Positions 19,131 through 58,604 of a DNA stretch of 64,000 nt are shown here, one piece after another. Made by a program: the position numbers and the translations under genes. The notes under the pieces are model-generated. The model did no database searches. It worked only from the letters and a program-made list of their open reading frames with translations, and was not told the origin of the DNA. Origin of the DNA: Parcubacteria group bacterium. Lineage in GTDB: Bacteria; Patescibacteriota; Patescibacteriia; UBA2169. Location of the stretch: assembly GCA_016181765.1 (NCBI GenBank), contig JACOYR010000005.1, positions 18,733-82,732 of the forward strand, in the 5' to 3' direction. Every line of letters starts with the position of its first letter. Position 1 is the stretch's first letter.

Positions 19131-19681
19131 TGCGGGGAATCGCCATAGTATTCTCGCAGTGGCGCTACGCAGCGCTCGCCGCATCCATTGCGCTGGGGTT
19201 GTTTTTGTTTATCGCATGGCTGCCGAACCGCGCGTTGCTCGGATTTGCGCTTGGGTCTGAAACTATTTCATTTTGGAAGCTCATCTGGCAGAGTCCGCAG
19301 TTTTTTGTGGCCAATGAAACGCGCACGAGTGCGTTTATCGCGCTGGCCGTCATCATCCTCTCGGCAACCAACACTGCTCTGCTTGCGTATTATCTCAAGC
19401 GCAGGATCCATTCACAGCGCGGCGCAGGCATTGGCCTTGCCGGAACCGTGGTCGGGCTCTTGGGAGTCGGATGCGCGGCGTGCGGCTCAATCATCCTCTC
19501 ATCAATTTTCGGCCTTGGCGCTGCTGCATCCTTTTTGGGAGTGTTGCCGTTTGGGGGCCTTGAGTTCGGGGTTGTTGGCATTCTCGCGCTCGCTTTTTCA
19601 ATCAGGCTCTTGAGCCGGCGCATTCAAGATCCGGATGCCTGCGCCGTGCCGGGGCGCGCCACAAACCCCCCATTCCACTAA
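19127..19681 (+). CDS. hypothetical membrane protein (GVGCAACG motif)
   Basis: 184 aa, 5 TM, overlaps ATPase stop by 4 nt. Confidence 0.45.
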   Translation: MMRGIAIVFSQWRYAALAASIALGLFLFIAWLPNRALLGFALGSETISFWKLIWQSPQFFVANETRTSAFIALAVIILSATNTALLAYYLKRRIHSQRGAGIGLAGTVVGLLGVGCAACGSIILSSIFGLGAAASFLGVLPFGGLEFGVVGILALAFSIRLLSRRIQDPDACAVPGRATNPPFH

Positions 19682-19718
19682 ACGGGATTTGCTCGCGGAA
19701 AAATCCGAATGTTTCAAT

Positions 19719-19795
19719 TGGTCGGGGTACTGGGATTTGAACCCAGAATCCCCACGTCCCAAACGTGGTGCCTTAGCCAATTAGGCCATACCCCG
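19719..19795 (-). tRNA. tRNA-Pro (anticodon UGG), CCA encoded
   Basis: hand-folded cloverleaf: acceptor CGGGGUA/UACCCCG, anticodon loop UUUGGGA, T-loop UUCAAAU. Confidence 0.8.
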
Positions 19796-19860
19796 GCGTC
19801 AGCCGCGCGCTTCAGGTTCCAGATACTCCTTTGAGTACAAAGCAGTATCTTTCACCTTGC

Positions 19861-19933
19861 GCCCGCGTCTTCCTTTCAAATTTCTGCTTAACCTCGGCGA
19901 GTACGCCTCGGCCCAAGCAGAAATTTGTGAAGA
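19861..19933 (-). repeat. structured tRNA-leader repeat, copy 1 (between tRNA-Ile and tRNA-Pro)
   Basis: gcccgcgtcttcctttcAAATTTCTGCTTaacc...cccAAGCAGAAATTTgtgaaga; long hairpin with inner tetraloop hairpin. Confidence 0.6.
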
Positions 19934-19946
19934 CACATGTATTTTC

Positions 19947-20023
19947 TGGTGGGCGATCGAGGAATCGAACCTCGGACCTCGTCATTATCAGTGACGCGCT
20001 CTAACCATCTGAGCTAATCGCCC
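19947..20023 (-). tRNA. tRNA-Ile (anticodon GAU), CCA encoded
   Basis: acceptor GGGCGAU/AUCGCCC, anticodon loop CUGAUAA, T-loop UUCGAUU. Confidence 0.8.
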
Positions 20024-20024
20024 G

Positions 20025-20264
20025 TGGTGCCGCGGGGGTGAGTCGTCATCACCCCGTTAATACGGGGGCCAGGCGCTTCCCGTCCGCCATATGGCAGACG
20101 GTACTCCCAAAAGGGATAGTCTCTACACCTTTCCGCCTCATCGGCGGACTTGGCTCGGGATTGCCCGCATGGGGTTTCCCCGAATTCACCTGGTTTGCTG
20201 TAGCCTATTACTAGGCTAAGGCCCAAAGATTTAGGCCTTCGCTCTACCGCTGAGCTACCGCGGC
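20025..20264 (-). tRNA. intron-containing tRNA gene (about 240 nt); canonical 5' exon (acceptor GCCGCGG, D-arm UAGCUCAGCGGUAGAGC) and 3' end CCGCGGC-A-CCA; identity uncertain (anticodon possibly GAA/Phe if splice after U33)
   Basis: perfect 7-bp acceptor complementarity between ends, canonical D-arm, encoded CCA; interior has group I P1-like hairpin with U.G at putative splice site and Azoarcus-like core motifs; T-arm appears non-canonical (9-nt loop). Confidence 0.6.
20080..20232 (-). ncRNA. putative group I (IC3-like) self-splicing intron inside tRNA; boundaries approximate
   Basis: motifs GGUGAAUUCGGGGAAACCCC, CCGAGCCAAGUCCGCCGAUGAGGCGGAAAGGUGUAGAGACUA closely resemble Azoarcus pre-tRNA-Ile intron (GCCGAGCCAAGC...GCCGAUGAAGGUGUAGAGACUA); P1 hairpin AAGGCCU|AAAUCUUUGGGCCUU. 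Confidence 0.5.
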
Positions 20265-20292
20265 ACGCGGTAATTATCAATTCTTTTCTTTC

Positions 20293-20369
20293 TGGTGGAC
20301 GATGGAGGATTTGAACCTCCGACCTCGTCGATGTCAACGACGCGCTCTAACCAACTGAGCTAATCGTCC
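20293..20369 (-). tRNA. tRNA-Val (anticodon GAC), CCA encoded
   Basis: acceptor GGACGAU/AUCGUCC, anticodon loop UUGACAU, T-loop UUCAAAU. Confidence 0.8.
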
Positions 20370-20426
20370 TCGTCAGAGTCGGACTGCGGGTTGCGCGTGC
20401 GAGCAAGCTCGCCCGCTCCACCCTTC

Positions 20427-20503
20427 GCCCGCCTCTTCCTCTCAAATTTTTTCTTAACTTCCCTCGCGTTCGCTCGGTCAGCCCAAGAAAAAATTTGTGA
20501 AGA
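20427..20503 (-). repeat. structured tRNA-leader repeat, copy 2 (16S-tRNA-Val spacer)
   Basis: gcccgcctcttcctctcAAATTTTTTCTTaact...cccAAGAAAAAATTTgtgaaga; stem changes compensatory relative to copy 1. Confidence 0.6.
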
Positions 20504-20514
20504 ATCACCCAACC

Positions 20515-20543
20515 AGAATAGCAGAAACGCCTGGATTTTTCAA
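20515..20543 (-). promoter_or_regulatory. possible internal promoter in 16S-tRNA spacer (minus strand TTGAAA-17-TATTCT)
   Basis: minus-strand cttgaaaaatccaggcgtttctgctattct upstream of leader element copy 2. Confidence 0.3.
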
Positions 20544-20778
20544 GGGGTAAAAAACAACCCGCCCTTTTGGGGCGAGCTGTTTTTTCTTGAGTGATGATAT
20601 GGTTGCAAAACGTCCGCTAGAGCATATGTGGGTACACTACTCACATAGTGGCTCTAACCTGCCCCTTGGTTTTAACCTTGTAGAGGCGACACAAAGGCTG
20701 TACCCCGTACGCTCGGAGAGCGGTACGGGTTCGACCAGCAATAGTTCTGCGCATGACCGCAGAACGGTGATCTCCCTA

Positions 20779-22186
<1,408 letters not shown>

Positions 22187-22404
22187 AACTATATCATTGC
22201 TCAAGTTTACCCCCGCGAAAGCGGGGGTTAGTGGCGCTTACCAAGAGTTTTGGGAAACTCTGGTAAACATGAGTTGTCAAAGAGATAAAAAATGCCTGCC
22301 CAAGAGGCAGACACACGACAAGATACAGTCTCGTTTTGTTGATAGTATTGAATATATCCTATCGTGTGTCTCCTGAACTGAATTGATTACTGCTAACTAC
22401 TCGT

Positions 22405-22433
22405 AGTATAGCGCAGGCGCGTATAAGTGTCAA
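22405..22433 (-). promoter_or_regulatory. near-consensus sigma70 promoter for 16S rRNA (TTGACA-17-TATACT), inside 3' end of trmD
   Basis: minus-strand cttgacacttatacgcgcctgcgctatact about 210 nt upstream of 16S 5' end. Confidence 0.5.
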
Positions 22434-42249: not shown

Positions 42250-42324
42250 TGGTACCGCTACGGGGAATCGGACCCCGATTACCAGGATGAAAACCTGGCG
42301 TCCTAACCATTAGACGATAGCGGC
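42250..42324 (-). tRNA. tRNA-Glu (anticodon UUC); the 3' terminus reads ACC, so CCA is not encoded (the adjoining CCA-like triplet lies on the opposite strand)
   Basis: acceptor GCCGCUA/UAGCGGU (G1.U72), D-stem GUC/GAC, anticodon loop UUUUCAU, T-loop UCCGAUU. Confidence 0.7.
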
Positions 42325-42386
42325 GCGGCGTCAGAGTCGGGGCTTCGGCTTACGTGTGCTGCTTACGCAGCCCACTCCAGCCTCGG

Positions 42387-42454
42387 CCCGCCTCTTCCTT
42401 TCGGATTTTTCCTTAACTCGCGAGTACGCGAGCCCAAGGAAAAATCCGGAGAGA
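42387..42454 (-). repeat. structured tRNA-leader repeat, copy 3 (5' leader of tRNA-Glu)
   Basis: gcccgcctcttcctttcGGATTTTTCCTTaactcgcgagtacgcgagcccAAGGAAAAATCCggagagaa. Confidence 0.6.
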
Positions 42455-42472: not shown

Positions 42473-42501
42473 AGTATACAAAGTTTTTGGTTTTTGGTCA
42501 A
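42473..42501 (-). promoter_or_regulatory. sigma70-like promoter for tRNA-Glu (TTGACC-17-TATACT)
   Basis: minus-strand tttgaccaaaaaccaaaaactttgtatact immediately upstream of leader element copy 3. Confidence 0.5.
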
Positions 42502-58595: not shown

Positions 58596-58604
58596 CGCGT
58601 CGTT

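Follow-up and report, generated by a model that had tools for sequence, protein, structure and literature searches.

A leader module ahead of three tRNA genes

The window analysed here, a stretch of 64,000 nucleotides (nt) from a Parcubacteria group bacterium (contig JACOYR010000005.1), carries three copies of a structured leader module directly upstream of transfer RNA (tRNA) genes. A preliminary description had reported three plus-strand copies of a hairpin of ~70 nt with constant flanks. Two of them lie where it placed them, at 19861-19933 and 20427-20503, and the third starts at 42386, not 42387; the first copy reads GCCCGCGTC, not GCCCGCCTC as had been given. In agreement with that description, a minus-strand tRNA gene is found downstream of every copy (Pro 19719-19795, Val 20293-20369, Glu 42250-42324), and ARAGORN and Rfam place these genes 58-66 nt beyond the plus-strand motifs. 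Alignment of the three window leaders revealed that conservation extends right up to the tRNA. The hairpin proved to be helix P1 alone of a four-helix module of ~125 nt. One of its supposedly constant flanks, GCCCGCCTCTTCC, is the 5' strand of helix P2 and covaries with CCCGACUCU beside the tRNA, and the flank UUCUUCAC together with the lower stem lacks conservation in relatives. A lower stem UCUUC/GAAGA, suggested by the window copies, was likewise rejected as unconserved in relatives.

Read 5' to 3' in the sense of the downstream gene, which is the minus strand in the window, the module consists of P1, the linker ARAGGA, a P2-P3-P4 rod with two 3x3 loops, and the tail GACG. Its length is 122-133 nt in the window and 120-140 nt in the family. 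The window features are given below, with scores from a covariance model (CM) of the family; L-numbers denote loci of relatives that carry units.

19797..19929, minus: complete leader unit 1 (133 nt; P2 of type B), flanked by tRNA-Ile and, after a gap of 1 nt, by tRNA-Pro(UGG); CM 110.1 bits
19877-19927, 19871-19876, 19801-19870 and 19797-19800, minus: P1, linker AAAGGA, P2-P4 and tail GACG of unit 1
19719..19795, minus: tRNA-Pro(UGG), partner downstream of unit 1
20371..20499, minus: complete leader unit 2 (129 nt), separated by 1 nt from tRNA-Val(GAC); CM R1 122.7 bits
20443..20497, minus: P1 of unit 2, the element of the preliminary description, with a 12-bp lower stem, invariant G.U G.U and bulged G (CUUGGGC/GUUAAG) and a variable apical hairpin
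20437..20442, minus: linker AGAGGA of unit 2 (family consensus ARAGGA), Shine-Dalgarno-like
20375..20436, minus: P2-P3-P4 rod of unit 2, with P2 AGAGGCGGGC/GUCCGACUCU, 3x3 loop GAA/GCA, P3 GGGU/ACCC (4 bp), 3x3 loop GGA/GCA and the P4 hairpin
20371..20374, minus: tail GACG of unit 2, with a single A between it and tRNA-Val +1
20515..20543, minus: promoter-like TTGAAA-17-TATTCT with TG extension, ahead of unit 2 and the Val/Phe-intron/Ile/unit 1/Pro operon
20293..20369, minus: tRNA-Val(GAC), partner downstream of unit 2
42329..42450, minus: complete leader unit 3 (122 nt), separated by 4 nt from tRNA-Glu(UUC); CM 118.7 bits
42402-42448, 42396-42401, 42333-42395 and 42329-42332, minus: P1, linker AAAGGA, P2-P4 and tail GACG of unit 3
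42473..42501, minus: promoter-like TTGACC-17-TATACT, ahead of unit 3 and tRNA-Glu
42250..42324, minus: tRNA-Glu(UUC), partner downstream of unit 3
58597..58603, minus: ACGACG-C abutting tRNA-Leu(CAG), probably what remains of the tail of a lost unit; in the ortholog, L038, a full sense unit is present here and an antisense unit at the tRNA 3' end

Two of the copies had been said to follow sigma70-like promoters, and the promoter scan identifies both (TTGAAA-17-TATTCT at (-)20543..20515 and TTGACC-17-TATACT at (-)42501..42473). The remaining one, copy 1, is situated between tRNA-Ile and tRNA-Pro, inside a polycistron as proposed and in a space too tight for a promoter. The element thus resides in 5' leaders, either downstream of promoters or within a polycistron, and is not itself a promoter, as the earlier reading had argued.

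Retrieval of the family

Scanning GTDB genomes with the pattern CTTGGGC-N8-32-GTTAAG-N9-GARAGGAAGA yielded 27 loci in about nine metagenome-assembled genomes (MAGs) of Patescibacteria/Parcubacteria; several of these loci are filed as 'Gammaproteobacteria', which we take to be Patescibacteria as well. A slightly looser pattern retrieved 62 loci from metagenomes. Twenty-seven full units were aligned as a seed, from which the covariance model R1 was built. R1 matches 40 units among the window and the genome loci combined and 94 among those from metagenomes. These matches, many of them outside the search pattern, come from dozens of independent contigs with E values between 1e-10 and 1e-24, which are high by construction for the training sequences. 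Altogether about 100 distinct copies are present across Patescibacteria MAGs and metagenomes. As the loci were retrieved by pattern, the breadth of the family and the conservation of its core are under-sampled and partly biased, and the invariance of CTTGGGC, GTTAAG and GARAGGA among these loci is partly imposed by the pattern; matches found only by the CM display the natural variants GUUGGGC, GUUAAY and GGAGUA. Since several MAGs gave four to seven loci with the strict pattern alone, a genome probably holds tens of copies. A scan of viral contigs returned 0 matches to the unit, and a phage origin was therefore rejected.

Fold, covariation and functional strand

The lower stem of P1 has a fixed length of 12 bp and is capped by two invariant G.U pairs and a bulged G (CUUGGGC/GUUAAG), above which a variable apical hairpin follows, where tandem G.A alternates with Watson-Crick pairs. 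As had been noted from the window copies, the sequence of this stem varies and its complementarity is retained, the mark of a selected structure under compensatory change. P2, also of fixed length, occurs in three covarying flavours (AGAG...CUCU, GACGCG...CGCGGCU and GUAG...CUAC). P3 is a 4-bp helix between two 3x3 loops (GRA/GNA each), and P4 is a hairpin. The module can hence be described as two rods, P1 and P2-P3-P4, linked by the invariant ARAGGA and ended by the invariant GACG.

RNAalifold on the 27-unit seed predicts 41 pairs, 30 of them compensatory. Over 91 distinct units, 95.0% of the cells are paired and 36/41 pairs are altered on both sides. The covariation score of these 91 units amounts to 0.70, compared with 0.21 in shuffles (0/500 reach 0.70) and 0.07-0.10 with slid partners. 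The preliminary description had named a lack of tRNA-linked copies in relatives and of covariation as the outcome that would speak against it; the 64 distinct tRNA-linked copies described below and the 36/41 covarying pairs decisively contradict such an outcome. Mutual information recovers the model pairs only, with no signal for a pseudoknot or for competing pairs in the aligned units, and pseudoknots and loop-loop contacts were rejected on this basis. Between the window and L010, the orthologous tRNA-Pro units differ by many compensatory changes with pairing kept, and the structure is therefore maintained locus by locus.

The minus strands of all three window units are predicted to fold stably, with minimum free energies of -68.0 kcal/mol (unit 1, z = -9.2), -59.8 kcal/mol (unit 2, z = -6.0) and -68.0 kcal/mol (unit 3, z = -7.4). 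All three folds reproduce the structure obtained by comparison. Folds of the plus strand are 8-18 kcal/mol weaker. The two invariant G.U pairs are present in 90/90 and 87/90 sequences, and G.U is far commoner than A.C; gene sense is therefore the functional strand. This agrees with the earlier assignment of the element to the tRNA-sense transcript, the conserved G.U pairs being A/C mismatches on the opposite strand.

AGGA and GACG could add a G-C pair and tandem sheared G.A pairs to P2, and these positions hardly vary. Lower-stem lengths are fixed and apical parts variable, so that the conserved P1 motif and the first GNA loop are similarly distant from the junction (about 13-15 stacked positions each by hand count), as would be expected for a docked tertiary fold. 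UACU loops are common to P1 and P4, which may simply reflect relatedness. Reading a small ORF downstream of the purine tract was rejected: the candidate GUG/CUG/AUG codon falls on a covarying P3 position, in keeping with RNA and not with coding sequence.

Genes attached to the units and the 3' junction

Among 100 distinct unit-plus-flank sequences, 64 have a tRNA gene downstream on the same strand, and these tRNAs comprise 33 isoacceptors. The gap from unit to tRNA (n = 64) is 1 nt in 48 cases, 0 nt in 2, 3 nt in 9, 4 nt in 3, and 5 nt and 6 nt in 1 case each, in contrast to the tRNA-tRNA spacers of the same loci, which range from 0 to 84 nt. The tail reads GACG in 58/64 tRNA-linked units.

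The association is not restricted to tRNAs, as had first been supposed. Units also precede transfer-messenger RNA (tmRNA; L007, L028), ribosomal-protein genes and other open reading frames (ORFs), and they occur in antisense at tRNA 3' ends. At ORFs, the ATG is located 0-2 nt past GACG and a local Shine-Dalgarno sequence is absent. The translations start at genuine N-termini for the ribosomal proteins L11 (locus L019), L20 (L057), S4 (L083) and S14 (L030). So do the translations of further linked ORFs, which encode a conserved unknown protein (L079, L054), the L047 protein, Fpg with a GTG start (L031) and, at L008, a protein whose N-terminus is FtsK-like by eye. Together, tRNA and tmRNA genes account for about 80% of copies. 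Promoter-like sites are found within 75 nt upstream of 26/91 units, compared with a background of 6%, at distances of 5-37 nt; some units are operon-internal, including ones directly before single short tRNA genes.

Two or three units are arranged in tandem at L052 310-700(-), L002 2103-2351(+), L021 367-615(+) and L018 2233-2491(-). In such arrays only the gene-adjoining unit keeps the P2 3' strand and the GACG tail; in the upstream members both are replaced by AU-rich promoter-like sequence or by GGUA. L031 343-462(+) and L054 942-1061(+) share an identical unit plus 70 nt upstream and continue into different ORFs (Fpg and the conserved unknown protein). Metagenome contigs may be chimeric at repeats, and this pair reflects either an assembly chimera at the repeat or recombination exactly at the unit's 3' edge.

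Abutting tRNA genes with 0-1 nt spacers and encoded CCA were observed in the window at 20023/20024 (-), at L002 1618/1619 and at L010 1301/1302; one such junction reads ...GCACCA C GGGCGAUU. With spacers this short and CCA encoded, a single cut must make both the upstream 3' and the downstream 5' end.

Gain, loss and antisense units

Units are gained and lost among relatives. The window tRNA-Leu(CAG) retains only ACGACG-C, and its ortholog at L038 has a full unit. Remnants of the form P2'-GACG-N lie directly before 8/41 unit-less tRNAs (window, L006, L009, L010, L059, L070), and these tails appear to have been left behind when units were deleted from their 5' side. A general preference of tRNA leaders for GACG was rejected, as the tetranucleotide was seen only beside recognizable longer unit remnants.

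At least 8 distinct units, and about 8 to 10 overall (roughly 10% of the distinct total), are antisense and face the 3' ends of convergent tRNA or tmRNA genes:

Antisense units, set 1: L038 3089-3210(-); L002 1708-1824(-); L080 12102-12231(-); L069 375-504(+)
Antisense units, set 2: L028 3802-3919(-); L006 2448-2573(+); L034 1215-1347(-); L046 3688-3823(-)

Between their ends and the complement of CCA lie 0-5 nt, or 27 nt in the case of L046, and the antisense unit is often paired inward with a sense unit across the gene. Most belong to a separate subfamily with P2 GCAAUGC/GCAUUGY, the tail AUGACY and an altered linker, and still carry the sense-strand G.U pairs. Convincing promoters were for the most part not found ahead of them, the upstream regions scoring at most 8/12, and the idea that antisense units have their own promoters was rejected. 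An rRNA-like leader-trailer stem between the sense and antisense units around one tRNA was also rejected, as the sequences are too different.

Comparison with catalogued RNAs

At gathering score, scanning the window against the 4227 covariance models of Rfam 15 detected 16S ribosomal RNA (rRNA) and tRNAs only and no match to the units. Relaxing the threshold to E<=10 for window 19500-20800 (two units) and L088 9650-10700 (three units) added nothing beyond tRNA, a group I intron and scattered microRNA-hairpin noise. We found no description of the element in the searchable literature, which yielded only work on the divergence of RNase P in the Candidate Phyla Radiation (PMC8172020) and on group I introns in tRNAs of Patescibacteria (PMC13011429). 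The module looks like an orphan RNA class, new at the family level and without a described counterpart.

The terminator scan finds no intrinsic terminator or attenuator at units; P1 is followed by ARAGGA, and P4/P2 by GACG. A kink-turn is not apparent, the loops being symmetric 3x3 without a 3-nt bulge, though tandem G.A is possible at AGGA/GACG and in the GNA/GNA loops. Mimicry of a protein-binding site of rRNA, such as that of S8, was rejected: 16S rRNA has GUUAAG words, but matching context was not found.

16S rRNA gene and an interrupted tRNA gene

The window also contains a 16S rRNA gene at 22189..20780 (-) of only 1410 nt, with a leader to about 22433 and a trailer to about 20590. The gene jumps from ...GGUUAAG to GAAGGGACGACGUCAA, roughly E. 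coli positions 1095-1175 being missing, and the 3' tail, too, is altered (AACUCCUUUCU). Associated with the gene are a separate promoter (TTGACA 22428-22433, TATACT 22405-22410), a boxA-like sequence TCTCTTTGACAA in the leader at 22274-22285, and a long leader-trailer stem. The gene is followed by a terminator-like hairpin, a GC stem and then minus-strand GUUGUUUUUU, the plus-strand form of which was called at 20560-20574. It is unlinked from 23S, and a separate tRNA operon follows.

Within that operon, between tRNA-Val and tRNA-Ile, a tRNA gene missed by ARAGORN (20024-20292, minus) harbours a group I intron, which matches RF00028 with 48.7 bits, slightly short of the gathering score (50). 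In sequence the exons are similar to tRNA-Phe(GAA) from L010, and gene order (Ile-Phe-Val-unit-Pro) points the same way. Insertion of the intron appears to be after U33, and the variable/T-loop region is atypical (T-loop UGACGAC). Group I introns in tRNAs have been described in Patescibacteria (PMC13011429).

Discussion

Any explanation of the module has to cover four facts: its fold, its strand, its tight junction with the 5' ends of three gene classes, and purifying selection locus by locus. From the structure, strand, junction statistics and gene associations observed here we infer a cut, its position and its enzyme. We propose, tentatively and at somewhat less than an even chance, that the module serves as a detachable cassette in the 5' leader: its fold would set a cut at GACG-N, giving rise to near-mature tRNAs and leaderless-type mRNAs. 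The preliminary interpretation, a processing or regulatory element in tRNA leaders, is in this respect partly supported.

Transcribed in the sense of the downstream gene, the cassette would fold autonomously and bring the junction next to the helix ends, where AGGA may pair with GACG. An endonucleolytic cut determined by the fold would then occur at or beside GACG-N. The cutter might be the RNA itself or a fold-reading host RNase, either RNase III-like, RNase Z-like or a diverged RNase P of the Candidate Phyla Radiation (CPR). For a self-cut the only evidence is indirect: the fold is compact and conserved, and the 3' junction exact. With about 22 bp in P1 and about 30 stacked positions in P2-P4, the duplexes are long enough for RNase III, whose substrates span roughly two turns of near-continuous duplex, although cleavage is only predicted. 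The RNase P RNA of CPR bacteria is reported to be present but diverged, many lacking the CCA-binding motif (PMC8172020). The products would be tRNA or tmRNA without a leader or with a very short one, and mRNA with its AUG at the 5' end or no more than 2 nt from it. Any promoter or upstream transcript could thereby deliver a defined 5' end.

A near-5'-terminal AUG would suit an organism with apparently few Shine-Dalgarno sites and many promoter-proximal starts. Among 48 long window ORFs, whose starts were called heuristically, a Shine-Dalgarno-like sequence is present at 7 (background 9%), and a -10-like box lies 4-10 nt before the first start in 11 (background 8.6%). Because Shine-Dalgarno sites are rare and -10 boxes close to starts are commoner, 5'-terminal AUGs are plausible, and these heuristic counts suggest that leaderless mRNAs may be common in this organism.

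Ribozymes that free a downstream 5' end are exemplified by the lariat-capping GIR1 and by hammerhead-type 5' insulators such as RiboJ. Like these, the unit is a structured RNA whose 3' edge coincides with the 5' end of a functional RNA, independently of the promoter. Unlike them, it has no sequence or CM similarity to Rfam ribozymes or to the hammerhead core. The hammerhead core (CUGANGA ... GAAA ... UH, three stems) was not found in the units, nor was there an Rfam match; CUGACG is seen only in type A and B tails, with A, C or U as the next base, type C tails read CUACGACG, and stem II is absent. A second parallel is tRNA punctuation in mitochondria. Leaderless transcription of tRNAs in Nanoarchaeum equitans (Randau 2008, cited in PMC8172020) is another. 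These systems share with the present one streamlined genomes, 5' ends of mRNAs and tRNAs set by a structural mark or by exact promoter placement, and leaderless mRNAs. They differ in that the punctuation here would be a dedicated non-tRNA fold upstream, and in that RNase P RNA is reported in CPR (PMC8172020).

Several observations weigh against a detachable cassette. RNase P alone yields tRNA 5' ends regardless of the leader, which leaves a processing role without evident benefit in four fifths of the copies. Where units are linked to ORFs they have promoters of their own, and a leaderless mRNA could be made without any cassette; the leaderless inference itself is built on crude ORF calls. We know of no ribozyme class that cuts its own 3' edge without pairing to downstream sequence. 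A single fixed cut would be inexact, since some tRNAs begin 3-6 nt away and ORF starts are offset by 0-2 nt. Units are also dispensable at some loci, the tRNA-Leu and tRNA-Cys genes of the window lacking a unit that relatives have. The antisense units at tRNA 3' ends, mostly promoterless, are left unexplained.

An expression leader that stays uncleaved is an unlikely alternative. Its 5' P1 and the Shine-Dalgarno-like ARAGGA would shield the transcript from 5' decay, similar to a stem-loop with a stabilizing Shine-Dalgarno sequence (STAB-SD). At ORFs, with the same low likelihood, ARAGGA would be a split ribosome-binding site, placed 4-6 nt from the AUG once P2-P4 is looped out. The 5' stabilizer of B. 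thuringiensis cryIIIA, GAAAGGAGG, is a STAB-SD, and split ribosome-binding sites bridged by a hairpin are known from phage T4 genes 38 and 25. As in these cases, a Shine-Dalgarno-like GAAAGGA(G) is located far upstream in linear distance, and a folded insert could restore the spacing to the AUG. In contrast to them, most units precede non-coding RNAs and the Shine-Dalgarno-like bases are part of a conserved junction.

Complementarity of the purine tract to the organism's own 16S tail had already been proposed, and it holds over 7 nt for GAAAGGA (16S 3' end ...GGAACAACUCCUUUCU); of this tract, however, only ARAGGA lies outside Watson-Crick helices. In general terms, GARAGGA, formed by the P1-closing G and the linker, shares 7 complementary nt with the tail ACUCCUUUC, and type-C units (GAAAGGAGU) reach 9 nt. 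Judged by this complementarity the unit resembles a Shine-Dalgarno or STAB-SD element, with 30S binding being only predicted, and 16S rRNA may possibly bind ARAGGA. The sole variable linker position is A or G, either of which pairs with U, and the few window genes led by a Shine-Dalgarno sequence have GGAGUAG-like sites. ORF-linked units lack any other such site, and GACG plus 0-2 nt would provide canonical spacing once P2 forms. The enrichment of promoter-like sites 5-37 nt upstream (26/91 versus 6%) likewise fits a leader at the 5' end. Yet such a leader leaves unexplained the 1-nt junction at tRNAs and tmRNA, the partners of about 80% of copies, and stabilizing a pre-tRNA leader that RNase P removes would be of little value. 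The genome makes weak use of Shine-Dalgarno sites, AGGA may be occupied by the GACG tail, the two flanking adenines are never G, though free Shine-Dalgarno pairing would permit it, and the elaborate conserved loops are not accounted for.

A regulatory gate appears quite unlikely. Here a ligand, ribosomal protein or other factor would stabilize the P2 extension (AGGA/GACG) up to position -2 and, with the same slim prospects, would thereby block or permit RNase P at tRNA and tmRNA and ribosomes at ORFs, jointly controlling genes of the translation machinery. The complex fold, in which helix lengths are fixed and the non-Watson-Crick motifs (G.U G.U plus bulged G, two GNA/GNA loops) are invariant, a gene set mostly of the translation apparatus (tRNAs, tmRNA, L11, L20, S4, S14), and a structure extending to 1 nt from the functional start are all consistent with it. 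The complexity is aptamer-like; a terminator or an alternative helix was not found, and mutual information reveals no competing pairs. Neither an alternative conformer nor an expression platform is visible, covariation for a switch is absent, and the sequence names no ligand or protein candidate. The FtsK-like, Fpg and unknown ORFs are, moreover, non-translation genes.

It is very improbable that the module acts on transcription, its nascent two-hairpin RNA modifying RNA polymerase by put-like or rrn-leader-like processive antitermination, or by acting against Rho, at genes that are highly expressed and largely untranslated. Units do lie just past promoters of stable-RNA genes, and two stem-loops with a conserved single-stranded tract recall the outline of boxB-boxA or put. 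As in boxB-boxA(-boxC) rRNA leaders, a variable hairpin is followed by a conserved single-stranded tract within the precursor. The unit differs in having four covarying helices, a fixed 0-6-nt gene junction, which antitermination would not need, and copies before ORFs. A boxA-like tract (UGCUCUUUAACAA-like) was found in no unit, whereas a canonical boxA (TCTCTTTGACAA, 22274-22285) is present in the 16S leader of the window, which carries no unit; furthermore, some units are operon-internal and sit directly before single short tRNA genes.

A selfish or recombinational repeat with little host-gene function, such as a REP/PATE/MITE-like single-stranded DNA hairpin or a recombination site gathering at gene boundaries, is equally improbable: many copies per genome, presence/absence differences between orthologous loci, remnant tails before 8/41 unit-less tRNAs, tandem arrays, inward-facing copies flanking tRNA and tmRNA genes, the L031/L054 pair with shared unit and upstream flank but different downstream genes (possibly an assembly chimera) and the tolerance of G.T wobble in DNA hairpins would suit it, but intragenomic and orthologous copies have diverged with pairing kept by compensatory change, which argues for selection at each locus and not for a recent burst. 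REP/BIME, Correia, MITE/PATE and attC elements are similarly repeated, strand-specific, imperfect palindromes in intergenic regions, some of them co-transcribed and processed, and the word GTTAAG resembles the attC core GTTRRRY. In attC sites, complementary cores R''(RYYYAAC) and R'(GTTRRRY) form the base of the stem. In the unit, however, GTTAAG is positioned mid-stem, 9-10 bp above the stem base, facing CTTGGG via two G.U pairs and a bulge instead of a complementary core. Terminal inverted repeats of the MITE or insertion-sequence kind are lacking, the unit ends (YRCA... and ...GACG) not being inverted repeats, and comparison of the filled site at L038 with the empty site in the window reveals no target-site duplication. 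Copies are old, with fixed position and orientation at gene starts; about 90% of units are oriented with the downstream gene. No transposase is associated, viral contigs yielded no copies, and a 4-nt target cannot explain exact placement at mature 5' ends and start codons.

Irrespective of its mode of action, the unit accounts for intergenic sequence beside tRNA genes that annotation pipelines leave blank, and even as a mere stabilizer or gate it is a large RNA class of ~125 nt with strong covariation support that is absent from Rfam and from the searchable literature. If the fold does define a 3'-edge cut, the module would be a portable tool of natural origin for making 5' ends and the first dedicated structured leader common to tRNAs, tmRNA and mRNAs. 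It bears on tRNA maturation in ultra-reduced CPR bacteria with diverged RNase P RNAs, on their translation of mRNAs with few Shine-Dalgarno sites and on the co-ordination of their translation-apparatus genes. More broadly, and as a doubtful extension of the cassette proposal, the units may constitute a new class of RNA punctuation, possibly effector-controlled, in which a 3'-edge-cutting ribozyme or an RNase-steering fold makes the 5' ends of tRNAs, tmRNA and leaderless ribosomal-protein mRNAs in this CPR lineage. If this is true, classical RNase P recognition would only in part govern how tRNA 5' ends form, and Shine-Dalgarno initiation would only in part govern how translation start sites are exposed.

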